Below are positions 2,244-32,456 of a stretch of DNA of 43,887 nucleotides, piece by piece. Within the stretch, counting starts at the first letter, position 1. Each line of letters starts with the position of its first letter. The notes beneath the pieces were generated by a model. The model worked only from the letters and a program-made list of their open reading frames with translations, had not been told where the DNA came from and did no database searches. A program made the position numbers and the translations under genes. Source of the stretch: Syntrophaceae bacterium (lineage in GTDB: Bacteria; Desulfobacterota; Syntrophia; Syntrophales; Smithellaceae); assembly GCA_016928765.1 (NCBI GenBank), contig JAFGKC010000036.1, positions 1-43,887 of the forward strand, written 5' to 3'.

Positions 2244-2299
2244 GCCCAACGAAAAGCTCACCCGGAACGTAGTGATCGGCTGTATTGCCCTTGTTGAGC
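2244..2299 (-). repeat. attC-like repeat, copy A (56 nt)
   Basis: The minus strand reads GCTCAACAAGGGCAATACAGCCGATCACTACGTTCCGGGTGAGCTTTTCGTTGGGC. It is bounded by GCTCAAC (RYYYAAC) and GTTGGGC (GTTRRRY). Confidence 0.5.
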
Positions 2300-2331
2300 C
2301 TTTATAAAAGTGTTGCCAATGTTCGGTTCGC

Positions 2332-2862
2332 TCACTGATGATGAACAAATATCAATTTGCTTGTGTCAAAACCCAGCGTTGTTGCTTTAGCTATGAGGAT
2401 ATCCTTCAGCTCTTGTTTTATTTTAGGGCTTCGAGCTAGAATCCACAAATAAGACTTATTTGGCCCGCACACGAGCGCATGTTGATAATTTTCACGGTCA
2501 AGTTCAAATACGACATAAGAACTATAAAAGGGCCCAAAGAAAGAAACTTTCAAGTAACCTTGATCTGGGCTTTTAACGAATAAGGCCTTTCCTTCAGCTT
2601 CTTTCCATTTTTTTTCTTTTTCAGAGTAACCGCGGTTTAACACCCTGACGCTGCCGTCGTCTCGCAAACTATAGTTTGCCGTTACTTGGCTCAACCCCCG
2701 TTCAAAATAATAATCCAAACGGGCAATTTCGTACCACTGCCCTAAATATTTGTCTAATTTGAAATTATCAACTGGTTTTACATTTTCTGGTATTCCAGCG
2801 CAACCAGCTAAGAACAGAAAAAATATTATTGCTATCTTGTTCATCTCTGTTTCTCCCTTCAA
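2332..2862 (-). CDS. blc: bacterial lipocalin (outer-membrane lipoprotein Blc family)
   Basis: Lipobox LFLAGC, then the lipocalin signature DKYLGQWYEIARLD with YFERG. The likely start is the ATG at 2844; position 2862 is a TTG abutting repeat B. Confidence 0.85.
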   Translation of the reverse strand: MKGETEMNKIAIIFFLFLAGCAGIPENVKPVDNFKLDKYLGQWYEIARLDYYFERGLSQVTANYSLRDDGSVRVLNRGYSEKEKKWKEAEGKALFVKSPDQGYLKVSFFGPFYSSYVVFELDRENYQHALVCGPNKSYLWILARSPKIKQELKDILIAKATTLGFDTSKLIFVHHQ

Positions 2863-2863
2863 A

Positions 2864-2919
2864 GCCTAACGAAAAAATCAGCCGGAGCGTAGCGATCGGG
2901 TGTATTGCTTTTGTTATAG
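2864..2919 (-). repeat. attC-like repeat, copy B (56 nt)
   Basis: The minus strand reads CTATAACAAAAGCAATACACCCGATCGCTACGCTCCGGCTGATTTTTTCGTTAGGC. The TAA stop of ORF 2914-3276 lies inside the left box, and the copy ends in GTTAGGC. Confidence 0.5.
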
Positions 2920-3276
2920 ATCTTTTTTCATTTCAATTAATGAACCGTCTTTGTTTACCCAGTATATTTTCCATGTGATATTGGTCGTGGGCAATTTAAT
3001 TTTCGTTTCAATGTCATTGCTAAGCAAAAGTGTGCCGAAAACATAAATTGTATCTTTTTCAATTTTCGCATGTGGCTTAACAAAGCAAGCAGAAGCAGCC
3101 TTGCTAGACCCACCCTTTAAGAATAATTGGTCTTGAATAATTTTTACTGATGGTGGCGTGAATAATTCATCATAGTTTACTTCCGGTTTTGGACAACCTG
3201 CAAGTAAAAGAACAAATAAAATTAATATTGTCTTCGTGGTAATATTTTTCATTTTACCCTTACATAAAGAAAACAT
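2914..3276 (-). CDS. small lipoprotein, hypothetical
   Basis: Signal peptide with lipobox LLLAGC. The probable start is the ATG at 3252 (MKNITTK...), because the first ATG lies inside repeat C. Confidence 0.55.
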   Translation of the reverse strand: MFSLCKGKMKNITTKTILILFVLLLAGCPKPEVNYDELFTPPSVKIIQDQLFLKGGSSKAASACFVKPHAKIEKDTIYVFGTLLLSNDIETKIKLPTTNITWKIYWVNKDGSLIEMKKDL

Positions 3277-3316
3277 CAGCCGGAGCGTTAATGATCGGCT
3301 ATATTGTTTTTTATAC
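3263..3316 (-). repeat. attC-like repeat, copy C (54 nt, right box degenerate)
   Basis: The minus strand reads GTATAAAAAACAATATAGCCGATCATTAACGCTCCGGCTGATGTTTTCTTTATG. The TAA stop of ORF 3311-4138 lies inside its left end. Confidence 0.4.
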
Positions 3317-4138
3317 TGTTTTTTTATTTAATAATGTTTTGTGTACCATTACTTCAACTATCCATATACTGGCTGTTACGAATACAACATCAATAATAAT
3401 TCGTAAGAATAAATCTAAAACTGACACTTGCAAGTAAACTAATACAAACAAATTATAAATTAGCCAATAACTCCCGAAAGTTAAACATCCAAATCGGATC
3501 GCGCGTATTACGGTAGGAATGTCATTTCTCTCTTCCCGTAAAAGCTTATACATTAGACTAAGCCATATTCCGATACCCAGAGTCCAGGAAAAAGTTTCCC
3601 ACGGCTTTTGCGTATAAGCTGATAAAACATGAATTACGTCATAGCTTAAATATCGTCCGATTAGAAAAAATAGCGGAACCAGTACAAAGGGCTTCCATGT
3701 TAATTTATTTTGCTGACTTATATTCAGCTTCCCGGTACCCGTCATCAGCGATAGCATTAATGCTAACAAGACTAAAGATGCCCCGTCAGCGGCACCTCCG
3801 CGAAGTTCATTCAGCAGTGAAGAGTCAAAGACGAGATTCATTTCAATGATTGCCAAAAAAGTCAGGATGCCAAAGGCAATACCAAAACGCCATCCTTTTA
3901 CGGTCTTTGTTCCAGGCAAATATTTCTGAATCAGGACAAATACTATTGCTACAGTCGTAAAGAAAACAATGAGCATTGCAGTAGCTGCAGGCAAGATCAA
4001 CCCTTTTTCCGCTAAAATACTGGGACGAAAATTGTAGTTAATGCGCGGCACAAAAAGAATATGCAGGATCACATCCGCGAATACCGCAATGATAATACAA
4101 ATAACCACTTTCCAGTAATTTGATTTTAATATGGTCAT
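3311..4138 (-). CDS. polytopic membrane protein, 275 aa, about 8 TM segments, hypothetical
   Basis: Long hydrophobic stretches. A GGGAGAG Shine-Dalgarno sequence lies upstream. About 30% GC. Confidence 0.6.
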   Translation of the reverse strand: MTILKSNYWKVVICIIIAVFADVILHILFVPRINYNFRPSILAEKGLILPAATAMLIVFFTTVAIVFVLIQKYLPGTKTVKGWRFGIAFGILTFLAIIEMNLVFDSSLLNELRGGAADGASLVLLALMLSLMTGTGKLNISQQNKLTWKPFVLVPLFFLIGRYLSYDVIHVLSAYTQKPWETFSWTLGIGIWLSLMYKLLREERNDIPTVIRAIRFGCLTFGSYWLIYNLFVLVYLQVSVLDLFLRIIIDVVFVTASIWIVEVMVHKTLLNKKTV

Positions 4139-18860: not shown

Positions 18861-18941
18861 TTTGCTAAATGAAGTAAGATTGTATTGAAAATCGGAAAAT
18901 ACCGATTGGGTATATTAATTGTTTGGTAGCTAAATAAGGTA

Positions 18942-19553
18942 ATGTGCAACATGGTTGAAAATAAAATTAATAGATTCGTAATAGCTCAAGAGCAATTGCC
19001 TGAAAAATTTCCTACACATCGGCATCAATCGGAGTTTTGGGAAAGTTTAGGTCGGGCCGTTGGTACATTTGGATTTCTTGAGGAAGTGTTAGGTAAGGCC
19101 ATATTTGCTTTATCGGGCACACGACCTTACGAAGAAAATGAGATAAAAATTGCCTATGAAAAATGGCTCCCAAAACTGGAGCGAGCACTGTATGACCAGC
19201 TTGGAGGTCTTATAGATAGTTTTGGTAAAGCAGTTCGCGAACATCCAAAATCAAAAATAAATAACCTAGATGAACTGTTGGTGGATTTAAAAAAGGCTGC
19301 GGAAATGCGAAATCTATTATGCCACGGATCATGGGGACCTCCTGATGATTCCGGCGCCTCTCTGCCATTGTTTGTAAACCGCCAAATGGAAATCTTTGAT
19401 ACTAAGGTGGATTGTGCATTTCTCAATCAGGTGCAATTGCATGCGGCCAGTTTAGCATGTGAGGTGATAAACACTGTAACTCATATGGGCTTCCAATTCC
19501 CAGGGTCTTCTGGACCAGGAGTTAAAATCTGGAACAATGAGAAAAAGCAATGA
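18942..19553 (+). CDS. hypothetical protein with an HEPN-like Rx4H motif
   Basis: AAEMRNLLCHG (R123...H128; nt 19308-19325) sits in a region that reads as predominantly helical, with no other recognisable domain. Confidence 0.5.
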   Translation: MCNMVENKINRFVIAQEQLPEKFPTHRHQSEFWESLGRAVGTFGFLEEVLGKAIFALSGTRPYEENEIKIAYEKWLPKLERALYDQLGGLIDSFGKAVREHPKSKINNLDELLVDLKKAAEMRNLLCHGSWGPPDDSGASLPLFVNRQMEIFDTKVDCAFLNQVQLHAASLACEVINTVTHMGFQFPGSSGPGVKIWNNEKKQ

Positions 19554-19590
19554 ATATTCTTATGTTTGAATTTGATCAAAATAAATAGTT

Positions 19591-19646
19591 GCCCAACAAG
19601 GGCAATCCGGCCGATCGCTGCGCTCCGGCTAATTTTTTTGTTAGAT
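19591..19646 (+). repeat. attC-like repeat, copy D (56 nt)
   Basis: GCCCAACAAGGGCAATCCGGCCGATCGCTGCGCTCCGGCTAATTTTTTTGTTAGAT, bounded by GCCCAAC (RYYYAAC) and GTTAGAT (GTTRRRY). Confidence 0.5.
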
Positions 19647-19666
19647 GAGAAAATAAATAAATTATT

Positions 19667-20608
19667 ATGAATAGACCACTTGTTTTTATTAGTTATGCTG
19701 GCGATGAATTAGATTTGGCTGATTTTGTCAAAAATTTTCTACTACGAGTATCAGGTAATAAAATAGAAGTGTTTGTGGCGAAACGGGATATATCATCAGG
19801 AGCAGATCCTTTAAAAACTATGTTAAATGAAAAATTAAGAAATGCTGATGCAATTATTCCTATTTGTTCTTATAAGAGCAAGGATACTCCATGGCTATGG
19901 TGGGAATCGGCCTCAGTCTGGGCTAAAACTGGAAAAGTTCACCCTCTTTTCACGAATATTTCAGCAAATGTATTCGGCGGCCCACTCATTTTAGTTGTGC
20001 AAGGAAAGGAGTTTTTTACAAAACAAGAATTTTTTCAAACAATAGATGCGCTCTGCAAAAATGTAAATATAACAGTAACTCAATTGGATTTTACGGAAGA
20101 AGAGGCGGTTAGATATACTGAACTAGAGAAAGCTAGTTCAGTATATACTCATCCAGCAAGTATTAAGATCGACTATAAAATTATTGAGCAAACCCAACTC
20201 TACCATAAGTATTCTCTAATATTTGAAATACAAAATAAGAGCGAAATTGCTTTTGACGACATAGTATTAGATATATTCTTTCCCACAGAATATCTAATTA
20301 TAAAAAACTGGAATTATCCTTTTTTAGCTTCATCACTTCCAACGGATAAGCCGGGATATACATGTCTAACATTCATATTCAACAACATATCGGAGAAAGC
20401 TAAACAAAAATTTTCTCAATTTCTGCTGCCAGAAAAAATATTAAAAATATTTGGCGTAGATGAAGGAAGAATTAACAGCTTAGAATATGAGATGGATAAT
20501 AACAGATGGGGCAGTAGGTATAAATACAAAATAAGTTATAATTTGTATATAAACAAGAAAGCCCCTCAAAGGGGAAGCATAGATTTTTCTACCCTGCAAT
20601 TCTTTTAA
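19667..20608 (+). CDS. TIR-domain protein with an uncharacterised ~170-aa C-terminal domain
   Basis: The N-terminus matches the bacterial TIR pattern: VFISYAGDE...A.F....L.....IEVFVAKRDISSGADP......L.NADAIIPICS..Y..S.PWLWWE. E80 (nt 19904-19906) aligns with the WCxxE catalytic Glu. About 33% GC. Confidence 0.7.
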   Translation: MNRPLVFISYAGDELDLADFVKNFLLRVSGNKIEVFVAKRDISSGADPLKTMLNEKLRNADAIIPICSYKSKDTPWLWWESASVWAKTGKVHPLFTNISANVFGGPLILVVQGKEFFTKQEFFQTIDALCKNVNITVTQLDFTEEEAVRYTELEKASSVYTHPASIKIDYKIIEQTQLYHKYSLIFEIQNKSEIAFDDIVLDIFFPTEYLIIKNWNYPFLASSLPTDKPGYTCLTFIFNNISEKAKQKFSQFLLPEKILKIFGVDEGRINSLEYEMDNNRWGSRYKYKISYNLYINKKAPQRGSIDFSTLQFF

Positions 20609-20670
20609 TCAACATCTAATAAGTAGATCTAGCGGATCACGTGACGCTCCGGATAAATTTTTCGTTCACA
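20607..20670 (+). repeat. attC-like repeat, copy E (64 nt, boxes degenerate)
   Basis: AATCAAC...GATCACGTGACGCTCCGGATAAATTTTTCGTTCACA. The right half is conserved with the family, and the TIR gene's TAA stop overlaps the left box. Confidence 0.35.
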
Positions 20671-20844: not shown

Positions 20845-21753
20845 TTGTTTTATTTTAAATCTACAGGAGAAAAAATGAAAGACTTTAAAGGCAAGACCGC
20901 TTTCGTGACCGGCGGAGCGGAAGGAATCGGATATTTTATCGGCCAGATGCTGGCCAAACAGGGCATGAACGTGATGCTCTCAGATATCGACACGAAAATG
21001 CTGAATTCGGCTGTCAAAACACTTCAGGCCGAAGGTCTGAAAGTACAAGGCGTTCCCCTGGATGTCACGCTGAAAGAAGAGTGGATTGCCGCCGCCCAAA
21101 AGACGGTTGAAGCATTCGGCAAAGTGCATATGCTGGTCGGCAATGCCGGTGTGGGCCCAAACGGCGCGCATCACACCATCGGGGAAAACAACTGGCGTTG
21201 GGTGCTGGATGTAAATGTAATGGGGCTTGTTTTCGGTGGCGAGGTGTTCATCCCTCTTTTGAAAGCCCATGGCGAAGGCGGATATATTCTGAATGTCGCT
21301 TCCATGGCCGGAATTCAGGGCGTGTCTTATGCCGGTGCCTACTGCGCGAGTAAAGCGGCCGCCGTGAGTATCTCTGAATCCTGGCGCTCCGAACTCCAAA
21401 AAGACGGCATTGTGGTTTCGGTTTTGTGTCCGGCGTTTGTTAAATCCCGCATCTATGACAGCATGCGCAACCGCCAGGCGCGCTACGGTGGGCCGGTAAG
21501 TTTTGATGATCTGGTCAAGGAGAAGCCAAAACGGGCATTCAATAAAGAGCTGGTGGTTACCGGCATTGACACGGATATTGTTGCCAACCGCGTTTTGGAA
21601 GGGCTGAAAGAAGAAGAATTCTATATTTTTACACATCCCCATTTTCGCGAGATGATAGAGAAGCTCAACGCCGAGCTAATCAGCGCTATGGAAAAAGCGG
21701 AAGCCAGCCCGGCGCTGGAAAGCGTTCCGCGTAAAGGGGTTATTATTTATTGA
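20845..21753 (+). CDS. SDR-family oxidoreductase
   Basis: TGGAEGIG cofactor motif and YCASK (YxxxK). The likely start is the ATG at 20875, after AGGAGA. About 52% GC. Confidence 0.85.
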   Translation: MFYFKSTGEKMKDFKGKTAFVTGGAEGIGYFIGQMLAKQGMNVMLSDIDTKMLNSAVKTLQAEGLKVQGVPLDVTLKEEWIAAAQKTVEAFGKVHMLVGNAGVGPNGAHHTIGENNWRWVLDVNVMGLVFGGEVFIPLLKAHGEGGYILNVASMAGIQGVSYAGAYCASKAAAVSISESWRSELQKDGIVVSVLCPAFVKSRIYDSMRNRQARYGGPVSFDDLVKEKPKRAFNKELVVTGIDTDIVANRVLEGLKEEEFYIFTHPHFREMIEKLNAELISAMEKAEASPALESVPRKGVIIY

Positions 21754-21782
21754 AGAATTGCCGCACCAAGTAAACACAAAAT

Positions 21783-21825
21783 ATTTAACGACCGCGCAGC
21801 GCTCCGGCTGATTTTTTTGTTAGTG
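21783..21825 (+). repeat. attC-like repeat, copy F (43 nt, shortened left half)
   Basis: ATTTAACGACCGCGCAGCGCTCCGGCTGATTTTTTTGTTAGTG. Confidence 0.4.
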
Positions 21826-21844
21826 CTTTCATGGAGGTATTGAA

Positions 21845-22378
21845 ATGAATTTATATTTTAGATTAATCTGGACAATAATTCGATCATTTTTCAGGCCAAA
21901 GATCAATTTTTCTGATGAAGTAGTTCTTAAACTTCGTATTTTCCCCAATGATTTGGATATAAATCGCCATTTAAATAATGGTCGTTATTTAACCATCCTT
22001 GATTTAGGAAGCATTGATCTCTTTCTAAGAAGCGGTGTTTTAGTCCGAGCTATTAGAAATGGATTCAGACCAATGATAGGAGGACTAATCGTAACATACC
22101 GTAATAGTTTGTCGTTGTTTGAGCAGTGTACACTTACCATGAAGTTGAAAGCGTGGGATGATTATTGGAATTATTTTAAGTTTGAATTTCGGAAGGTAGA
22201 TGGACGGCTTTCTGCCTCCGGATATTTTAAGGGAGCGTTTGTATCAAAAAATGGTTTAGTCCCAAATAATGTGGCAGATGAAATTTTTGAATATAAGCAT
22301 GGCTTTTGTGAACTGCCTCCAGCGGTAGAAAATTGGATAAGGGCAGAAAATCATCTATCTGGAGAGAGTATCACCTAG
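21845..22378 (+). CDS. hotdog-fold acyl-CoA thioesterase family protein (4HBT_2-like)
   Basis: RIFPNDLDINRHLNNGRYLTILDLG pattern. GGAGG Shine-Dalgarno sequence 8 nt upstream. Confidence 0.65.
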   Translation: MNLYFRLIWTIIRSFFRPKINFSDEVVLKLRIFPNDLDINRHLNNGRYLTILDLGSIDLFLRSGVLVRAIRNGFRPMIGGLIVTYRNSLSLFEQCTLTMKLKAWDDYWNYFKFEFRKVDGRLSASGYFKGAFVSKNGLVPNNVADEIFEYKHGFCELPPAVENWIRAENHLSGESIT

Positions 22379-23693: not shown

Positions 23694-26600
23694 TTATTCT
23701 GATAGCGATATACTTTGATCCATGCCCGCGGCTGGTATTTTTACCTCGACCAAATGTTCTTGCCGATCATTAATCAGTTGAATTGTCCGGTCGGGTCTCG
23801 CGAAGCCGTCCAGGGTGACACTCGTTTCTTCGTCGCTGTCATCTGTTTGCCGCACAGTAATTTTGTAAGAAGTCTCTCTAAACGTATAAAGAATTGTGAA
23901 CTCATTCCAATGGGCGGGAAGGCAGGGCTTAAAACTCATTTTATCCATATTGATCGAGAGTCCCAAAAGTGATTCCAGGATTAGCCGGTACATCCAGGCT
24001 GCGGAACCGGTAAACCATGTCCAACCGCCGCGGCCGACATGCGGCGAAACAGCATAAACGTCGGAAGCAACAACATAAGGCTCAACTTTATAGATAGCGA
24101 CTTGCGCTGGCGATAGCCCGTGATTGATCGGATTGATTATGGACAATAGATCCCACAGGCGCTGATGGTCGCCAAGCGCCGCAAAGGCCATGGCCGCCCA
24201 GATGGCCGCGTGTGTGTACTGGCCGCCATTTTCTCTCACGCCGGGTACATAACCTTTAATATAGCCTGGTTCCATTTCAGCTTTATCAAATGGCGGGTCA
24301 AGCAATTGGATCAGTTTTTTATCCCGGTGAACCAGAAGCAAATCTACGGATTCCATAGCTTGCCGCATTCGTTCAGGAGTACCGGCTCCCGATAGAACAG
24401 ACCAGCTTTGCGCAATCGAGTCAATACGGCATTCCATGTTTGTTGCCGATCCCAATAAAGATCCGTCATCGAAATAGGCGCGGCGGTACCACTGGCCGTC
24501 CCAACCTTCGCGCTCAATGCTTTGCCGCAACTTGCTTGCCTGGCTATGGCACAACTCGGCAAAAGCCATGTCACTTTTAAGACGGGCGATTTCGGCAAAC
24601 TTAATTAATATTTCGTAAAGGAAAAAGCCCATCCAGACACTTTCGCCTTGGCCTCCTTCTCCCACCTTATTCATACCGTCATTCCAATCGCCTGTGCCCA
24701 TCAGCGGCAGGCCATGACTGCCGAATCTTAGACCTTTTTTAATCGCTCGCGCGCAGTGATCGTATAAACTAGCTGTTTCATCAGCAATACCCGGCAGATC
24801 GTAATAAGAATCCTCGTCTTCTCTTACCTGGCGGCCATCAATAAATCTGACGAGTTCATCCAAAATGCTCAAATCACCGGTAGTGATAATATAGCGACTC
24901 ACGGCCAAAGGCAGCCACAGATAATCATCAGAACATCGTGTGCGCACTCCCCTTCCTGAAGGCGGATGCCACCAATGCTGGGCATCGCCATCCTGAAATT
25001 GACGGCTCGCGCACAAAAGCAGGTGCTGACGGACAAGAGCAGGCACGGCATAAACAAGCGCCATGGTATCCTGTAGCTGGTCACGGAATCCGAAGGCGCC
25101 GCCGGACTGGTAATAACCGTTACGCGCCCAAAGACGGCAGGCGATCGTCTGGTATAAAAGCCAGCCATTGGCCAGCACATTCACAGACACATCCGGAGTT
25201 TCTATTTGTATGATACCCAGAGTCTTGCGCCAGTATTCCTGCACCGCCTCCAGAACGCCTTGCGCGATGGTTGATCCTCTAAAACTTTTGACTGTGTTGC
25301 TGGCATCATCCGCGCCCCTTCTTCCGGTAACACCCAGCCTGAAGATTGTTTCCTGAACTTGCCCGGTGTCTAATTCCAAATTAACTTGGATGGCGCCGCA
25401 CGGATCCAGAGCCGCGCCAACTTTGCCGGAAAGTTGTGTCCGCGTCATTGCCGCAGGAGCAGAAAGCGCGCCATTGCGCCCGATAAACTCCGTTCTGTCT
25501 CCGGTGATGGTGCGATTTTTATCGTCTACATCAAAGAAAACCACCCGGTCGGCAAATTCCGCGTTGTAAGCGTTGCGCGCGAAAAGCGCTCCGCTTCCCG
25601 TATCGACTTCGGTGGTCACATGCATCATTGTTTTGGACCGCAAATCACCGAGTACCCACTCCACGTAACCTGTTACCGACAGGCTGCGGGATCGGCCCGA
25701 ATCATTGCGCAATTTTAATACGGTAAATTTAACCGGCGCGTCGATGGCCACATAGATCCACAGTTCTGATCGAATTCCTTCTTCCGTATGTTCGAAAACA
25801 CTATAACCGAATCCATGCCGGCTGATGTAGGGTATTGCCGAGCGGCAGGGCAGGGGCGCGGGCGACCAGAAATGACCAGTTTCTTCATCACGTATATAGA
25901 ATGCTTCTCCACTGAGATCGCTTACGGGATCGTTGTACCAGGGTGTCAGGCGGAACTCATGAGCATTCTCCTTCCATGTTGAAGCAGACCCGCTCTCTGA
26001 AACAACTGTTCCAAAGTGCGGGTTAGCCAATACATTCGCCCAGGGTGCCGGTGTCACCTGACCCGGTTTTGTCGTGATGACATATTCACGCCCGTCGGGT
26101 GTAAATCCGCCCAGTCCGTTTTCGAAAAGCAGAGGGGATGAAGGAATTTCCTCTGTCTTCCGGATTCCCGTATATTGCGCGCGAGTCGGTTTGAAACGCG
26201 GAACAACTGTTTCTCTAAGAGAACGGCGGCTGATTTGCTCCGCCAGAGTTCCCCAGTTATCCTTGATTACTATACGGGCAACAGTTTGCAGAAGAATCCT
26301 GTCTTCATTGGATATCTGATCACCGGGCCGGAGAAATATGCCACCTGGCTTATCTACAACTTTTGCTTCCCTCCCTGCTGTAATCATGTCTTTTATCTGG
26401 TCGTGGAGGAATTGTCTGTAGATTGCATTATCTTCATTCCAAATCATTAAATCCACCGCCAGGCCTTTTAAGCGCCAGTACGCGTGCGCCTGTTCGAGTT
26501 GACGCACAAGTTCGATGTTTGCGTGGTCACCGATCTGGAGCAATACAATGGGCAAATCTCCGGAAATGGCGTAACCCCATAAACCAGATTGCCCTCGACG

Positions 26601-29600
26601 GTTTTTGATGATTATTTTCTGATCAGCGCGCAGTGATGCATTGCCGTAAATGACGCAACCGGCCAATTGTCCGTAAAGTTGAGCGTCGGCTTCCGAGGCA
26701 TTGATTTGATGCAAGACTACCTGGCTGTGGGTCCACGCCAGATCAAAAACACGATCAGCAAGACGCTGATCGTGATATTTTTCGGAAAGGCCAAGCGCCT
26801 GCTCCCGGGTTTCACTGATACCGGAAACAATATCAATCATCACCGATTCTCCCGCGTCCAGCTTAACGCGGCAACGTATCGCCGCTATGGGATCGAGAAC
26901 GGAGCCTTGAGTATTCGAAAGCGTTTCTAAAATATTTTCAGACCAACGCATCGCCTGAGGATCGGCCAAAGTATTTCCACGGCCGATAAACTTTAAGCGA
27001 TCCGTTTCATAGGAAACATCCTTGTTTGGTTTACCGTGCAAGGCCATCAGGTGAAACATCCAGCGCGAAGGTTCATCTTTTGAACGCGGCCTTCTTGTGC
27101 AGAGAATTGTCTGGCGTTCACGGATGATTTCCGTCTGAACAAAAAGATTGGCGAACGCGGGATGCAGCGCGTCAGCTGCGGGCTCCGCCAGAACAATTTC
27201 CGCGTAACTGGTTATATCCAGATCTCTTGGCTTTCGCGAACGGTTGGTGATGCGAACACGGCGCAGTTCAATATCATCCTCGGGGGATACGGCTATTTGA
27301 GTGTGTGTGTCGATTTCATGATCGCGACGCCGAAACTCAACTCTGGCGTCAGAGAAAATTGCTTCATATCTTTCCGGCTGTTTCAGAGTTGGTTGATAAG
27401 CTGTTGACCAAAACTCTCCATTGGTCGTATCGCGAATATAACAGAATGTTCCCCAATTATCGCGGGTAGAGTCTTCACGCCAGCGTGTGACGGCCAGATT
27501 GTTCCAGCGGCTGTATCCACCCCCCGCGTTGGTGATCATCACATGGTATCTTCCATTGGACAATAATTGCACCTTCGGTACTGGTGTATGGGGAGTGTTA
27601 AATATGCGCGCCGGAAACTCCTGAGTGATTGTAGCTTTACGTATGGTAGCGTCCTCGGAGATCTGCCGGTAGAAGGCCACCGCCCGGGGAATACGCTCCT
27701 GTAGCAGCAGCATGGTTGATTGAAACATCGGCTCGGACGCGAAACGTTTTTGCATCGGACAATCAAGCAGCAGATGGGACAAGGCCAGCAAACTCATGCC
27801 CTGGTGATGAGCCATGAAGGATTTGACCACAACACTCGATTTACCGCGAGGCAGACGCGAAGAAGTGTAATCTATCGCTTCGTAAAAACCATATGGCCCT
27901 TCCATGCCCTCTCTGGCCAGCTGCTGCAAATTCAGGCAGGCTTCTTCCGGCGCGACCATCAACGCCAGAGCTGAAGCATACGGCGCGACAACCAGATCAT
28001 CGGAAAGTCCTCGTTTGAGGCCGAGCCCCGGAACACCAAAGGCACGATACTGGTAGTTTTGATGGACATCTATTGTACTGTAACCGGATTCGGAAATGCC
28101 CCAAGGCACGCCACGGCTTTTTCCATAGTCAATCTGCCTGCGGACAGCCGCCGTGTATGTCTGATCCAACAGTGTGCTTTCATAAGTGGGCATCACCAAA
28201 AGCGGCATAAGATATTCGAACATTGAACCGTCCCAGGAAAGAAGAACCGGATATCTCCCCGGATTTGTCAGCAGGCGTCCCAGGGCAAACCAGTTTTCCT
28301 GAGGCAACTGTCCCTGCGCGATACCGATAAAACTGCAAAATCTGGCCTCTGAAGCCAAGAGGTCATAGTAACTTGCGTCCCGGCGGCGCTCAGTGGTGTT
28401 ATAGCCAATAGTCAACAGATGACTTCCTTTATCATAAAGAAAACTATAATCCATATCAGCAAAGTCATTTGCTTGTGCTGCCAAGCGGTCAATTGCCGTT
28501 ATTCTTTCCAAGGCGCGCTGAGAGCCTTCCTTGATCATCCGGCGAAAATCGGAAAACCACGCTTTCTCTTCGGCAGTTGCGTTGATGCTAAGCATGCTTT
28601 CGATTACGTTTTTTAATTTCTTTTTTGATGTTATCAATTCCCGTAACGTGGGAATTTCCATAGTTTCAAGAAACTCGCTTAGCCTGGCTGAAGGGGGTGT
28701 AAGTGTAATCCACGGACAGAAAAAAGAAATTTCTTCCAAGGCATCGGAACATTGATGCACCAGAGTTTTTACCCACCACAAGGCATCACTATCGTTGTTT
28801 GTGTCAAAGGCGCGGGCAAGATCAATTGAGGCGTTTGCCAGATCTTCGAGGCGCCGTCGCAATGGCTTAATCATATTTTTATCGGGATCCGGCAATGAGG
28901 ACAGATATTTTTGAAAATCGGCAAGCTGTTTTGGCGCTCCCGCTCCCGCAACTTCAGCCAGAACAGTAATAGTGTCGCCAATGCCGTTAAACCATTGAAA
29001 TCCGCAAATCTTCTGATCGGGAAGCTCAATAAGTCCCCGCCGTAACGTTAATAAGTGACCGCTGAGATTTCCACTATCCACGGTGGATATGTAATGAGGC
29101 CGCAGTGTGGCTAGGCTTTGTGTGTCGTACCAGTTATAAAAGTGACCACGATAGCGCTGCAATTTCCCCATCGTATGGAAGGCATCGGTGGTGCGTTCGA
29201 TTAAGTCTCCCAGCGAAATATAACCAAAATCATACGCGGATAAATTTGCAAGCAAGGCCAGTCCCATGTTTGTCGGCGATGTGCGATGCGCGATGACGGC
29301 AGCCGGATGTTCCTGATAGTTATCCGGCGGCAGCCAATTATCATCGGGCCCGACAAATGTTTCGAAGAACGCCCAGGTTTTACGGGCAATTTTTCTCAGA
29401 AAAATCATTTGCTCTTCTTTAAGTTTTATAACACCGGACGCAATTGGCCTGCTGACCCACCACGTAACCCCGGGAGATAGAAACCACAGAACCAGGACAA
29501 ACAAAGCCGCGCCAAGAGCGCCGGGTCTGGCCATCATGAGATAAATAAATAGCGCTAAAGAAAGTAAAGGAGCTATCCACATCGACCGGCAGGAAGCGGC

Positions 29601-32456
29601 AAAGGTATTCAGGTTGCGGCTCGCCAAATTTCCGGAAGGATTCCACTCCAGCAGCCGCTTATGTGAAACGTGCATTCGCCAGAGAGTACGCGCAATCGCG
29701 TCCAGGCTAAAAAATGCTTCATAGGGAAGGCAAACGAGGGTGTACAAAGTCTGAACAAAGTGCCTGCGGGCCTGACGCAGTGCTGTGAAAAAGTGTTGGT
29801 TCCATAAGACATCTCCCGGCTTGCGGAACAGTTCCAGAAGTATTTCGCCCGCGGGAGGAATAAGAAGAATGCCGATCACCAATATTGTCCATAACCAAAC
29901 CGGAGAAATGATGGCCCATCCCATAATTAACATCAAGGTCAAAGCCGCGGGAACCAGAGAGCGCCGGAGGTTGTCGAAAATCTTCCACTGGGAAAGCCAG
30001 GATATTTTATTTTTCTGCTGTCTGCCGTCTGCGGTGGGCACGGCCGATCTCAGCCAACTGGCAATTTGCCAGTCTCCGCGAATCCAGCGATGTCTGCGGT
30101 TCACATCTACGTGGTATTGAGAGGGGTATTCCTCGTATAGCTGAACATCAGAAAGCAAGCCCGAACGCGCATAACAACCTTCTATCAGATCATGGCTGAG
30201 TATCCGGTTTTCCGGGAAGCGGCCACCCAGAGCCTGCTCAAACGCATCGACATCATAAATGCCTTTACCTATGTATGAACCTTCACCAAAAACATCCTGG
30301 TAGATATTGGAAACAACGCGCGTATAAGGGTCAAAGCCGGTTTCACCCCCCCAGAGGCGCGCGTACCAAGATTTGCCGTCACCCGATAAGGTTTCGGCGA
30401 TACGCGGCTGAAGAATGCCGTAACCTTCACAAACGCGTTGCCGCGCTTCATCATAACGTGGACGATTCAGCGGATGGGCCATCGCCCCCACGAATTGCTG
30501 CGCGGAATCGCGAGGAAGTTGAGTATCCGTATCTAGCGTAATGACGTACTTCACATTAGATAATATTTCTGGAATACCAATGACGTGAGAGAAACAATCT
30601 TTTGCGCCGCCGCGCAGAAAAGCGTTCAGCTGGGCGATCTTTCCACGCTTGCGCTCATAACCCATCCAAATTTGCTCCTCGGGATTCCAGCTACGCGGAC
30701 GATGGAAGAGAAAGAAAGTTCCTCCTTTTGTGTCCCTATACTTATCATTTAGTTCTTCAATCCTCTTTTGAGCCAACTGAATCAGCTCATCGTCCGTGGA
30801 AGTTTTTTCTTCATGGGCATCGAGGAAGTCGGTTAGCAGGGCAAAATGCAGATTGTTATCCCGATTGGCCAAAAATCTTATTTCCAGTGATTCAACCAGG
30901 GCTTCTACGTTTTGAGCGGACGAAAGCATAGTCGGGATTACCACCAGCGTGCTTGATTCCGTAGGAATTTCCCTGGAAAAATCCATGCGCGGCAGCAGAT
31001 AAGGATGGGCGAAAAGCGTAGCCAGCCAGTTGATCAGAGCTACGGCGAGACTGCTTGCGCCCAGAATAAAAATAACAGCGATAGGCACAAGTATCCAGCC
31101 GTGCAAACTATGGTTTTGAACTTTTAGAAGTAAGCCGAAAGCCGTGATGAGAGTGATGGCCATGATGGCCGAAAGATATGTGAACAACGGAAACCTGGAA
31201 AAGATTTGACGGATGGACTCAGCGATGAGTTTGCGTACCTGAGCCCTTTGTTCAAGCTTGGGCAATCCCTTGTCGATTAGATAAAAACCAACATGAGTCT
31301 CCCGATCGCCATTTCTGCACGCGGATGAGGCTTGGCGTGATAAATCAATGGCTAAACGCGCCACGTCACTTTCGGAGAGGCGGCTTTTTTTTGCTATTTT
31401 TTCCACGGCGTGACGATAACGGTCTCTGGTGGTAAAATCCATTTTGATATAGACATCACATGGGTCTTCACGAAGAGTCTGTTCAACAACGCTCATTGTC
31501 TCCACAAACTCATGCCAGTTCATGGATGTCAGAAACCTCAGGCTGCCGATACTGTTACTCACAGATACCTGGTCGGCGGCCTGTTGCTGATTTTCGGAGC
31601 GGACCAGCTGTTCAATCGTCAAATGAGACTCGGCAAGCCGCTGCTCAATCCAGGTGATGGGCAGAGCCAGCGCCGGACTTTGTCCTTGCAAACGGCGCGT
31701 AAATTCCGCGACAAATGAACTTGTCATCGGTTGATCGGACCGTGCCATGTCGGCAATTACCAAAACGAGGCTTTTAGGATCGCTCCTCGCGATATTGGCC
31801 ATCTGGTTCGCCCAATAATCGGCGCGCTCCCTGTAGGCAATGCCAGCGGTAATTCGCGTTCCAATGCGCCTTAGATTTTCGATCAGCGCCAGCCGCAACA
31901 TAATCGGAATTGCCCACAACTCGCCCAATTTCAGAGGGGTTATTGTCTGGTAGGCCGTAACAAAGTTAATGAGACTTTCCATATCCACCCGTCCATCACC
32001 GTGAGAGATTGTCTCAAGGGCAATATCATATACACGGGGGAGCCCGGCCGATGGCCCGTTTTGCAGACGCGGCAATCCCCGGCTATAGCCTTTGGACAGG
32101 TGTCTTTTAGCCAGACGAATATGCTCTTCAATTAAGTAAAAGTTATCCAGAAGCCATTCTTCGGCAGGAGCTATTGTGCTGTTATCTTTAACCGCATCTG
32201 TCAGCTGGTTGCATGTTTTAATCAGAACATCTTCGTTGTTATGAAGCCGTGTCAGAAGCTGTTCCGAAGCCCTGGCACGAGTCAATTTATGCACATGCGC
32301 CAGCGCTTTGCCGCGCTGTTTCATCTGTTCGGAGCTTAGCAGTTCCGAGCGCAGCGGTAATTCATCAGTGGATTGTTTTTTTCCGAAAGCGCCGCCGGGA
32401 AAAGATTTTTTCAAGCCCGGCAATGTCGCTAAAGCTTTTTTATCGTTTAACTTCAA
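23694..32456 (-). CDS. cyclic beta-1,2-glucan synthase-like giant protein (NdvB/ChvB/Cgs family), 2920 aa
   Basis: TM segments flank a GT84-type domain (VITLDTDTQLPRD, GYGILQPR, SHDLIEG, RHRWIRGDWQ). The C-terminal region is GH94 / cellobiose-phosphorylase-like (GGAFGFRDQLQD, GTGDWNDGMN). TTG start preceded by GAGGAGG 8 nt upstream. Confidence 0.85.
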   Translation of the reverse strand: MKLNDKKALATLPGLKKSFPGGAFGKKQSTDELPLRSELLSSEQMKQRGKALAHVHKLTRARASEQLLTRLHNNEDVLIKTCNQLTDAVKDNSTIAPAEEWLLDNFYLIEEHIRLAKRHLSKGYSRGLPRLQNGPSAGLPRVYDIALETISHGDGRVDMESLINFVTAYQTITPLKLGELWAIPIMLRLALIENLRRIGTRITAGIAYRERADYWANQMANIARSDPKSLVLVIADMARSDQPMTSSFVAEFTRRLQGQSPALALPITWIEQRLAESHLTIEQLVRSENQQQAADQVSVSNSIGSLRFLTSMNWHEFVETMSVVEQTLREDPCDVYIKMDFTTRDRYRHAVEKIAKKSRLSESDVARLAIDLSRQASSACRNGDRETHVGFYLIDKGLPKLEQRAQVRKLIAESIRQIFSRFPLFTYLSAIMAITLITAFGLLLKVQNHSLHGWILVPIAVIFILGASSLAVALINWLATLFAHPYLLPRMDFSREIPTESSTLVVIPTMLSSAQNVEALVESLEIRFLANRDNNLHFALLTDFLDAHEEKTSTDDELIQLAQKRIEELNDKYRDTKGGTFFLFHRPRSWNPEEQIWMGYERKRGKIAQLNAFLRGGAKDCFSHVIGIPEILSNVKYVITLDTDTQLPRDSAQQFVGAMAHPLNRPRYDEARQRVCEGYGILQPRIAETLSGDGKSWYARLWGGETGFDPYTRVVSNIYQDVFGEGSYIGKGIYDVDAFEQALGGRFPENRILSHDLIEGCYARSGLLSDVQLYEEYPSQYHVDVNRRHRWIRGDWQIASWLRSAVPTADGRQQKNKISWLSQWKIFDNLRRSLVPAALTLMLIMGWAIISPVWLWTILVIGILLIPPAGEILLELFRKPGDVLWNQHFFTALRQARRHFVQTLYTLVCLPYEAFFSLDAIARTLWRMHVSHKRLLEWNPSGNLASRNLNTFAASCRSMWIAPLLSLALFIYLMMARPGALGAALFVLVLWFLSPGVTWWVSRPIASGVIKLKEEQMIFLRKIARKTWAFFETFVGPDDNWLPPDNYQEHPAAVIAHRTSPTNMGLALLANLSAYDFGYISLGDLIERTTDAFHTMGKLQRYRGHFYNWYDTQSLATLRPHYISTVDSGNLSGHLLTLRRGLIELPDQKICGFQWFNGIGDTITVLAEVAGAGAPKQLADFQKYLSSLPDPDKNMIKPLRRRLEDLANASIDLARAFDTNNDSDALWWVKTLVHQCSDALEEISFFCPWITLTPPSARLSEFLETMEIPTLRELITSKKKLKNVIESMLSINATAEEKAWFSDFRRMIKEGSQRALERITAIDRLAAQANDFADMDYSFLYDKGSHLLTIGYNTTERRRDASYYDLLASEARFCSFIGIAQGQLPQENWFALGRLLTNPGRYPVLLSWDGSMFEYLMPLLVMPTYESTLLDQTYTAAVRRQIDYGKSRGVPWGISESGYSTIDVHQNYQYRAFGVPGLGLKRGLSDDLVVAPYASALALMVAPEEACLNLQQLAREGMEGPYGFYEAIDYTSSRLPRGKSSVVVKSFMAHHQGMSLLALSHLLLDCPMQKRFASEPMFQSTMLLLQERIPRAVAFYRQISEDATIRKATITQEFPARIFNTPHTPVPKVQLLSNGRYHVMITNAGGGYSRWNNLAVTRWREDSTRDNWGTFCYIRDTTNGEFWSTAYQPTLKQPERYEAIFSDARVEFRRRDHEIDTHTQIAVSPEDDIELRRVRITNRSRKPRDLDITSYAEIVLAEPAADALHPAFANLFVQTEIIRERQTILCTRRPRSKDEPSRWMFHLMALHGKPNKDVSYETDRLKFIGRGNTLADPQAMRWSENILETLSNTQGSVLDPIAAIRCRVKLDAGESVMIDIVSGISETREQALGLSEKYHDQRLADRVFDLAWTHSQVVLHQINASEADAQLYGQLAGCVIYGNASLRADQKIIIKNRRGQSGLWGYAISGDLPIVLLQIGDHANIELVRQLEQAHAYWRLKGLAVDLMIWNEDNAIYRQFLHDQIKDMITAGREAKVVDKPGGIFLRPGDQISNEDRILLQTVARIVIKDNWGTLAEQISRRSLRETVVPRFKPTRAQYTGIRKTEEIPSSPLLFENGLGGFTPDGREYVITTKPGQVTPAPWANVLANPHFGTVVSESGSASTWKENAHEFRLTPWYNDPVSDLSGEAFYIRDEETGHFWSPAPLPCRSAIPYISRHGFGYSVFEHTEEGIRSELWIYVAIDAPVKFTVLKLRNDSGRSRSLSVTGYVEWVLGDLRSKTMMHVTTEVDTGSGALFARNAYNAEFADRVVFFDVDDKNRTITGDRTEFIGRNGALSAPAAMTRTQLSGKVGAALDPCGAIQVNLELDTGQVQETIFRLGVTGRRGADDASNTVKSFRGSTIAQGVLEAVQEYWRKTLGIIQIETPDVSVNVLANGWLLYQTIACRLWARNGYYQSGGAFGFRDQLQDTMALVYAVPALVRQHLLLCASRQFQDGDAQHWWHPPSGRGVRTRCSDDYLWLPLAVSRYIITTGDLSILDELVRFIDGRQVREDEDSYYDLPGIADETASLYDHCARAIKKGLRFGSHGLPLMGTGDWNDGMNKVGEGGQGESVWMGFFLYEILIKFAEIARLKSDMAFAELCHSQASKLRQSIEREGWDGQWYRRAYFDDGSLLGSATNMECRIDSIAQSWSVLSGAGTPERMRQAMESVDLLLVHRDKKLIQLLDPPFDKAEMEPGYIKGYVPGVRENGGQYTHAAIWAAMAFAALGDHQRLWDLLSIINPINHGLSPAQVAIYKVEPYVVASDVYAVSPHVGRGGWTWFTGSAAWMYRLILESLLGLSINMDKMSFKPCLPAHWNEFTILYTFRETSYKITVRQTDDSDEETSVTLDGFARPDRTIQLINDRQEHLVEVKIPAAGMDQSISLSE

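Follow-up and report, generated by a model that had tools for sequence, protein, structure and literature searches.

Single proteins that join a toxic N-terminal enzyme to a C-terminal sensor are already known among anti-phage systems, as are TIR effectors that cleave nicotinamide adenine dinucleotide (NAD+) and defence genes carried in integron cassettes; sensors with an immunoglobulin (Ig)-like fold are a class newly described for Schlafen proteins. In pSlfn5, a Schlafen tRNase is combined with a "previously unknown" Ig-like beta-sandwich sensor (PMC13056530, Nat Microbiol 2026). The sensor binds T5-type tail-assembly chaperones, its specificity moves with the domain in chimeras, and it has been likened to integrin and complement C5 domains (PMC13056530). 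Here, we analyse a gene found in a 43,887-nucleotide stretch of DNA from a Syntrophaceae bacterium (GenBank assembly GCA_016928765.1, contig JAFGKC010000036.1, positions 1 to 43,887; this whole stretch is referred to as the window). The gene, at 19667..20608 (+), encodes a 313-aa protein composed of an N-terminal TIR domain, a linker helix, and a C-terminal beta-sandwich. A sequence-only reading of the window had singled it out as a candidate single-gene defence or NADase module. Our analysis makes it probable that the gene is a stand-alone, single-protein abortive-infection anti-phage system, which combines a TIR NADase with an Ig-like sensor and has spread as an integron cassette.

Like pSlfn5, the window protein is a single polypeptide in which a toxic enzyme at the N-terminus is followed by an Ig-like beta-sandwich at the C-terminus, and in both proteins the sensor half varies more than the effector half. 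Judged by described structural neighbours alone, the two sandwiches are also alike, with integrin and complement macroglobulin (MG) domains on the one side, and the macroglobulin receptor-binding domain, integrin alphaV, and C3c on the other. The two proteins differ in their effectors, which are a TIR domain with NAD+ as the predicted target in the window protein and a tRNA-cleaving Schlafen RNase in pSlfn5. By analogy, the window C-terminal domain and the pSlfn5 sensor may belong to the same domain family.

Vulcan (NIR/DUF4062 and HEAT repeats), Evangelion (DUF4062 and AUX), DSR2 (SIR2 and a tail-tube sensor), and SpbK (TIR) share the layout predicted for the window protein: an NAD-consuming, Rossmann-like N-terminal head with a catalytic Glu, followed by a C-terminal protein-sensing region encoded by the same gene. 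The TIR domain of SpbK is the best TIR-only structural match of the window protein by target-normalized template modelling (TM) score (0.69). Unlike the heads of Vulcan, Evangelion, and DSR2, the window head is a canonical TIR_2 domain and not DUF4062 or SIR2. Its proposed sensor is an all-beta sandwich instead of the HEAT, alpha-solenoid, or AUX regions of these systems and SpbK, and no sequence relation to any of the four exists outside the TIR domain.

The best Foldseek matches of the full-length model were SPARTA TIR-APAZ proteins (E=5e-7, 250-280 aligned columns), in which an N-terminal TIR domain is likewise followed by a second domain. However, no Argonaute gene lies beside the window gene, whose neighbours are an HEPN-like open reading frame (ORF) and an SDR gene, and it was therefore not assigned to SPARTA. 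Weak matches also relate the protein to two further groups of TIR-superfamily anti-phage proteins, Thoeris ThsB and bSEFIR. It was assigned to neither, since the ThsB_TIR match is below the Pfam cut-off and no ThsA gene was found in the window or in 11 related contexts, and since residues 1-68 alone matched the bSEFIR model.

Integron cassettes are an established reservoir of defence genes (Darracq 2025, Kieffer 2025, Getz 2025); the preprint of a chromosomal-integron study does not mention TIR. Like the cassettes from this reservoir, the window gene is a compact candidate defence gene in a promoterless, one-ORF cassette of ~1 kb placed between attC sites, with a GC content atypical for its host. 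It differs from them in its host lineage, which is Syntrophales and other anaerobes instead of Vibrio or the carriers of clinical class 1 integrons, and in being located in a cluster resembling clusters of attC sites lacking integron integrases (CALIN). Three things were not described in the libraries and papers searched: the combination of TIR and beta-sandwich, the breadth of heads to which the domain is attached, and carriage by Syntrophales integrons. The proposal that the TIR architecture is undescribed thus stands insofar as it is absent from PADLOC, where a partial bSEFIR match was obtained alone, and has to be qualified by the Ig-like sensor published in 2026 on a Schlafen nuclease (PMC13056530), which may be of the same domain family.

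Domains of the TIR protein

The protein, translated from an ATG start, is 100% identical to an NCBI protein of a Syntrophaceae metagenome-assembled genome. Residues 1-132 (19667..20062, +) form the TIR domain, in which betaA (FISY), the BB-loop (FVAKRD), betaC (IIPICS), and alphaC (PWLWWE) can be recognized; Glu80, predicted to be the catalytic residue and placed where helix alphaC begins, is encoded at 19904..19906 (+). The TIR pattern and motifs quoted in the sequence-only reading are therefore present, and the profile searches that it had proposed support the assignment: Pfam TIR_2 (PF13676) matched residues 6-95 at 35.4 bits and E=1.7e-8, the gathering cut-off being 28 bits. Precomputed Pfam annotation lists TIR_2 in 92 of the 94 homologues listed, the two lacking it being partial. 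The ThsB_TIR family of Pfam scored below threshold (15.7 bits, cut-off 21.2, E=0.021). PADLOC returned a partial match to bSEFIR (PDLC03957) alone, aligning residues 1-68 with positions 35-102 of the 412-position model (E=6e-6), and an NCBIfam scan of the protein gave nothing meaningful.

A homologue search in 5.8 billion proteins recovered 94 relatives, of which ~46 are collinear from end to end, with identities of 36-90%. Their sources are Syntrophaceae/Smithella, Omnitrophota, Nitrospirota, Desulfobacterales, and further uncultured anaerobes. In 56 sequences F7, S9, Y10, A38, D41, C67, W76, W78, W79, E80, W85, P93, Q112, and G113 are invariant, and the first ten of these positions (F7 to E80) are likewise invariant in an alignment of 20 relatives. 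FISY, the AKRD of the BB-loop, and WxWWE(80) are unchanged across the 56 relatives. Glu80 aligns with the Glu of PWVKYE in the best PDB sequence match, 8wcf_A, a solved TIR domain of the ThsB/DUF1863 type ("Molecular chaperone Tir"). Its earlier assignment as the counterpart of the WCxxE-type glutamate is borne out by this match and by its invariance. The features of a catalytic-type TIR sequence were all found: an alphaC Glu in the W-x-x-x-E context, a betaA F/I-S-H/Y motif, and a BB-loop.

AlphaFold2, run on the 56-sequence alignment, modelled the protein with a mean local confidence (pLDDT) of 92.3, as an alternating beta/alpha TIR domain (1-132), a linker helix (144-158), and an all-beta domain (164-310). 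In the model, Glu80 is located at the start of predicted helix alphaC (75-88), after the strand 62-67. A Foldseek search of the PDB with the full model retrieved SPARTA TIR-APAZ, plant TIRs, AbTir, SpbK, and TIR-STING, with a probability of 1.00 for many TIR structures. Target-normalized TM scores of 0.58-0.69 were obtained for the TIR-only chains 5for and 9phb, in agreement with a flavodoxin-like TIR fold. The TIR module also exists among the relatives without the C-terminal domain. In addition, some longer relatives (P0017/P0019/P0025 and P0028/P0033/P0034/P0041) carry N-terminal extensions of 110-165 aa before the TIR domain, of at least two unrelated kinds; these are unannotated, and no Pfam family matched them. 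One of the extensions is also found in TIR-only proteins that lack the C-terminal domain (e.g., P0058), which suggests that it is a second interchangeable module.

The proposed sensor/regulatory module is an Ig-like beta-sandwich at residues ~161-313 (20147..20605, +), preceded by the linker helix. The structured domain thus begins at about residue 160 and not, as had been supposed, at about residue 140. Its landmarks are H180, N190, F205-P206, Y231, P255, Y274, D277, and a C-terminal LQxF; among the relatives, H180, N190, P206, Y231, L253, P255, and Y274 are invariant and LQxF is conserved. The C-terminal half had been described as matching nothing recognizable, and this description holds: no match was found in Pfam, NCBIfam, or PADLOC, no Pfam match recurred in this domain among 24 family members, and no PDB sequence relative was detected, with either a single sequence or a profile as the query. 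The BFVD library of viral structures gave no match to the domain at E <=1e-3.

Modelled alone, the domain reached a pLDDT of 90.9 and a predicted TM score (pTM) of 0.79. The structural search that had been proposed for it returned generic sandwiches alone, all with TM <0.5: the alpha-macroglobulin receptor-binding domain, glycoside hydrolase accessory domains, transglutaminase barrels, integrin alphaV, and complement C3c. An APAZ/SPARTA identity, prompted by the top Foldseek matches, was considered and rejected, as the domain alone found no APAZ among the 50 matches listed and no prokaryotic Argonaute (pAgo) gene is adjacent. The SPARTA alignments have a query-normalized TM score of 0.36 and a root-mean-square deviation of >20 Å, which means that only the TIR domain superposes. 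As modelled, the fold of the C-terminal domain is a generic Ig-like sandwich, not APAZ.

The C-terminal domain on other heads and in other genomes

When 1.84 billion representatives were searched with a profile of the C-terminal domain, 100 representatives were matched, 32 of them below 1e-10, and the domain was always at the extreme C-terminus. A Pfam scan of 94 additional representatives revealed several different heads: TIR_2 in 24 and TIR in 14 (separate Pfam tallies, which probably overlap), SLFN_AlbA_2 in 12, CAP12/Pycsar-type TIR in three, Nuc_deoxyrib_tr (nucleoside deoxyribosyltransferase (NDT)-like) in two, and HNH in one. Further members with the motif CFVIMPIGD...NPNVFYELG in the head are read, from this motif, as NDT-like.

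The Schlafen-headed proteins were matched by the profile with hmmsearch E values of 8e-8 to 1e-4, and their heads were confirmed as SLFN_AlbA_2. Reciprocal profile-profile comparison of the TIR-linked and Schlafen-linked C-terminal domains with HHalign gave a probability of 98.1% (E=8e-14, 136 columns), and the two sets have the landmarks HxYxL..N, FP, YxMD, and W.(L/V)Y...PPQxG...LQxF-COOH in common. At the level of sequence profiles, the C-terminal domains of the window protein and of the Schlafen/AlbA_2-headed proteins are demonstrably homologous. Such an effector-swap pattern is a signature of a sensor/regulatory module in single-protein defence systems. A broader proposal strikes us as possible but falls short of being probable: that the beta-sandwich is a widespread, unnamed family of phage-protein sensors placed on at least five toxic heads (canonical TIR, Pycsar-type TIR, NDT-like nucleoside hydrolase, Schlafen RNase, and HNH), that this family is that of the tail-assembly-chaperone sensor of pSlfn5, and that the TIR version is a new self-sufficient NAD-depleting system moved by integrons among anaerobic syntrophs.

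The median ratio of nonsynonymous to synonymous substitution rates (dN/dS) among seven cassette orthologues is 0.14, which indicates that the gene is functional. The ratio is higher in the C-terminal domain than in the TIR domain (0.195 vs 0.082), and this holds for 21 of 21 pairs. Family-wide, mean pairwise identity is 64% in the TIR domain and 50% in the C-terminal domain, and the TIR domain is the more conserved one in 923 of 946 pairs. This distribution fits a conserved effector combined with a faster-evolving sensor.

No neighbour gene is conserved beside the relatives: each context has its own set of neighbours, and no two of the upstream ORFs are related. A conserved upstream partner was accordingly rejected, the 203-aa ORF of the window, the 226-aa ORF of L005, and the 310-aa ORF of L066 being unrelated to one another. 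No ThsA, pAgo, STING, SAVED, or NLR partner was seen in the relatives' contexts, and the window neighbours include no SIR2/SLOG, Macro, pAgo, STING, or NLR gene, just as had been remarked for this locus. Several of the contexts are dense defence or mobile islands. Taken one context at a time, the genes found were an AAA_23/SMC_N ATPase or transposase; a PIN toxin-antitoxin pair; AAA_15 and Mrr_cat; a DUF4011 helicase, DarT and Macro (DarTG), ThsB-TIR, a serine recombinase, and PLD-SNF2; YhcG and an integrase; type I restriction-modification, a Gabija-like OLD-TOPRIM/UvrD pair, and a ParB-methylase; and an integrase and Fic. Two contexts are plain housekeeping or biosynthetic regions.

Two ideas on the origin and carriage of the family were considered and rejected. 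A phage origin found no backing, as there were no relatives in viral contigs or INPHARED phages and no BFVD match at the threshold given above. Plasmid carriage in cultured bacteria was not found either, the plasmid matches to the Schlafen fusion covering the Schlafen head alone. In a relative from Desulfobacterales with 41% identity, a 310-aa ORF that is unmatched in Pfam (L066:5072-6004 and L067:614-1546) and the beginning of the TIR gene share 4 nt. This overlap suggests translational coupling, and the ORF could be a lineage-specific partner.

The presence of relatives in defence islands, the attachment of the C-terminal domain to other heads, and its faster evolution relative to the TIR domain strengthen the case for defence. 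For the mode of action we infer a NADase activity, a trigger, oligomerization, and a defence phenotype. The N-terminal TIR domain would be the effector, an NAD+ glycohydrolase using Glu80. The C-terminal sandwich would act as a sensor or regulator that holds the TIR domain inactive in uninfected cells. Binding of a protein made by the phage to the sandwich (a structural or assembly protein, to judge by analogy) would lead to the TIR-TIR association that TIR NADases require, and the ensuing depletion of NAD+ would abort the infection.

The integron cassette and its surroundings

The TIR gene cassette occupies 19641..20664 (+). Its 1024 bp correspond to the spacing of two attC cores; it contains a single ORF and has a GC content of 32.8%, compared with 46.5% for the window, in keeping with the low value (33%) first noticed. 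The attC site at 19591..19646 (+; R'' GCCCAAC at 19591-19597, R' GTTAGAT at 19640-19646) closes the upstream, HEPN-like cassette, and its G|TT crossover at 19640|19641 places the start of the TIR cassette at 19641. The core of this site has two mismatches to the 24-mer of the attC family, and the site can be aligned from end to end with 77 other copies. The attC site of the TIR cassette itself (20614..20670, +; R'' ATCTAAT at 20614-20620, R' GTTCACA at 20664-20670) is decayed, with five mismatches in the core: orthologues have ATCTAAC as R'', and the R' box deviates from GTTRRRY. It still aligns with the attC family over its full length, as a degenerate member. The stop codons of both low-GC ORFs are followed by the motif CGCTCCGG(C/A)T(A/G)A(A/T)TTTTT..GTT.

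The attC core motif is present 5-6 times in the window, against 0.43 copies expected, and every copy is placed between a stop codon and the next ribosome-binding site and ATG. The 24-mer core occurs exactly in 55 stretches from ~50 species, mostly Syntrophales/Smithella. In an exhaustive Hamming scan, the copies were co-oriented in 30 of 30 multi-copy loci, with a typical spacing of 330-2200 nt, and shuffled sequence used as a control contained no attC core matches. An alignment of 78 copies displays R'' (YTAAC), L'', the loop, L', R' (GTTAGRY), and the bulged base of a textbook attC site, and 77.6% of cells in the imperfect palindrome are paired, whereas slid registers give 31-51%. The family is too homogeneous for covariation to reach significance, and single-copy DNA folds are individually unimpressive.

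At three loci (L009, L015, and L062), arrays of these sites divergently adjoin ORFs that match TIGR02249, "integron integrase", with 426-435 bits (cut-off 265). The tblastn probe, an IntI1 sequence, served as a lead only, and its matches were then verified with NCBIfam. Repetitive extragenic palindromes or terminators, considered as alternative identities of the repeats, are ruled out by the strict co-orientation, the cassette-like spacing, and the IntI adjacency. Across L008-L062, this type of attC occurs both in classic integrons composed of intI and an array (e.g., L009:3182-6937, with intI at L009:23-1075) and as solo or CALIN copies. Its hosts are Syntrophales, Smithella, and other "Deltaproteobacteria"; the few matches in Methanobacterium, Phycisphaerales, and Ignavibacteriales bins may be due to transfer or binning errors.

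According to the G|TT crossover rule, the 5' end of a cassette must complement the R'' box of the attC site of the same cassette. The 5' end of the TIR cassette, TTAGATGAG..., is conserved in orthologues whose upstream genes are unrelated. G|TTAGAT(G/A)A... precedes the gene in the window, L001/L002, L005, L069, L070, L071, L073, and L095 despite unrelated upstream DNA, the upstream genes differing among the window, L001, L002, L005, and L095. After the stop codon, L068-L073 continue with ...CAACATCTAAC, and ATCTAAC is the exact reverse complement of GTTAGAT; the attC bodies after R'' are of differing length and end in GTTGGCT, GTTAGAT, or GTTAGGC. The pairing between the 5' end and R'' is 6/7 in the window and L001. 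Since the 5' end complements its own R'' in orthologues of unrelated context, the cassette is a genuine mobile one, and the gene is thereby proven to be an integron cassette. More distant relatives (<=52% identity) do not have these boundaries and are found on other islands. The attC-like sites that the sequence-only reading had placed on both sides of the gene thus belong to a real attC family, co-oriented and found beside TIGR02249 integrases; the 3' site of the TIR cassette turned out to be decayed. The window copy is probably immobilized in its CALIN-like cluster.

The window is a housekeeping region (carB, queF, prfC, typA, hsp20, lon, and pfk) with two CALIN-like clusters inside it, and the cluster with the TIR cassette lies between lon and pfk. 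No tyrosine recombinase or intI was found in the window by annotation scans or by tblastn with the IntI1 probe, so that a complete integron is not recognized here. Scanning the window for Rfam families and tRNAs gave no matches. The upstream cassette (18906..19640, +) contains an ORF of 203 aa at 18942-19553; its 5' boundary was inferred from R''/R' complementarity, the TTGGGT at 18906 being complementary to its own R'' GCCCAAC. The ORF belongs to a very large, unannotated family with 1629 matches of ~200 aa, 58-94% identical and spread over many phyla; neither Pfam nor the PDB yielded a match to it. In 22 sequences its RNxxxH motif (R123, N124, H128) does not vary, and judging by this motif the ORF plausibly encodes an HEPN-type RNase. 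The HEPN-like character proposed for this neighbour is made plausible by the motif; the match to Csx1 is weak (E=0.024).

Downstream, the 180 nt between the decayed attC site and the start of the SDR gene contain no convincing ORF. The interval 20845-22378 holds the SDR gene (20845-21753, +; with a normal GC content of 50.7%), an attC copy, and a 4HBT thioesterase gene. This attC copy, the third in the same orientation, is at 21770..21825 (+), with R' GTTAGTG at 21819-21825 and one mismatch in the core at 21800. From this order it appears that ordinary-looking metabolic genes are also cassettes in the cluster. The second cluster, 16 kb away at 2246..3287, has the opposite orientation (-), with cores at 2246, 2866, and 3264. 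It flanks genes for a lipocalin (2332-2862), a 120-aa lipoprotein (2914-3276), and a 275-aa membrane protein (3311-4138), and is likewise located inside housekeeping DNA without an integrase. A giant ORF of 2920 aa (23694-32456, -) lies beside pfk.

Alternative explanations and biological meaning

Several points weigh against a stand-alone TIR defence system. TIR domains can also make signalling nucleotides or serve as scaffolds. As the modelled fold of the C-terminal domain is a generic Ig-like one, with TM <0.5 for all neighbours, this domain could serve oligomerization rather than sensing, and its faster evolution could equally be explained by weaker constraint alone. The ~305-aa Schlafen fusions detected in this analysis are smaller than RorSlfn5 (43 kDa). 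No member of the family was found in plasmid and phage collections of cultured organisms or in viral contigs. At the window copy, the attC boxes are decayed and there is no integrase; moreover, the window has no Pc promoter, and a promoter scan found promoter-like sites at chance level.

The last two of these points also underlie the alternative that survives best, which applies to the window copy alone and which we nevertheless regard as unlikely: that it is a fossil, a silent cassette stranded with mutated boxes and no promoter in an integrase-less cluster. The altered R'' and R' boxes and the five core mismatches agree with this view, as do the missing intI and promoter, and a similar fossil copy is found among housekeeping genes in L095. 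However, the ORF is full length and has kept all family-invariant residues, and the dN/dS of the window copy relative to orthologues is 0.13-0.22. Such values indicate purifying selection until recently, and thereby imply expression, for which read-through transcription from lon or from the cassette upstream is a possible source. In any case, the fossil view concerns mobility and expression; it is compatible with a family-level function and does not conflict with the functional assignment.

A second possibility, in our estimation improbable, is that the protein works as in Thoeris, the TIR domain making an NAD-derived signal of the gcADPR or His-ADPR type after the C-terminal domain senses phage, with a ThsA-like effector encoded elsewhere in the genome. 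ThsB proteins are known as phage-protein sensors (PMC11312562). The weak ThsB_TIR match of the window protein (E=0.021) points in this direction, and several relatives reach higher scores, the best being that of the TIR-only P0058 (1.4e-4, 22.7 bits, cut-off 21.2); the ThsB/DUF1863 type of the best PDB sequence match and the relative that adjoins a ThsB_TIR gene are further points in favour. On the other hand, no ThsA-type gene, either SIR2-SLOG or Macro-TM, is adjacent in the window or the 11 other contexts, and the same C-terminal domain is found on directly toxic heads, the Schlafen RNase and HNH. A one-gene integron cassette moves alone, which favours a self-sufficient system over a Thoeris-like one.

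Toxin-type genes are common in chromosomal integrons, and this counts for a third explanation, which appears to us no more probable than the second: that the protein has a non-immune role, whether as a TIR toxin, in NAD metabolism, or in interactions between proteins (for example, in a module for addiction or stabilization of the cassette array, or as an inter-bacterial effector), the sandwich being a domain for binding or oligomerization. The Ig-like sandwich is a generic module for interactions, some of the contexts contain nothing but housekeeping or biosynthetic genes, and bacterial TIR proteins with non-defence roles exist (10.64898/2026.06.25.731849), but no cognate antitoxin or immunity gene is conserved alongside, no obvious hydrophobic signal or secretion sequence is seen in the translation (judged by eye, no prediction tool being used), several independent contexts are dense in defence genes, and the exchange of effectors with Schlafen and Pycsar-type TIR is typical of defence.

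The hypothesis of a self-sufficient TIR defence system is directly testable, since the protein is small, has no partner, and offers an obvious catalytic-dead control (E80Q). The immune repertoire and the integron content of anaerobic syntrophs are essentially unexplored. Integron cassettes have been viewed as defence libraries in Vibrio and in clinical integrons; the results carry this view over to Syntrophales and other anaerobes, in which one attC type is conserved across 50 or more species. If the proposed function is confirmed, a one-gene TIR system of ~0.94 kb would join the catalogue of defence systems, and one family of Ig-like sensors recombined with several unrelated effectors would provide natural chimeras for understanding how a single sensor fold switches chemically different enzymes.

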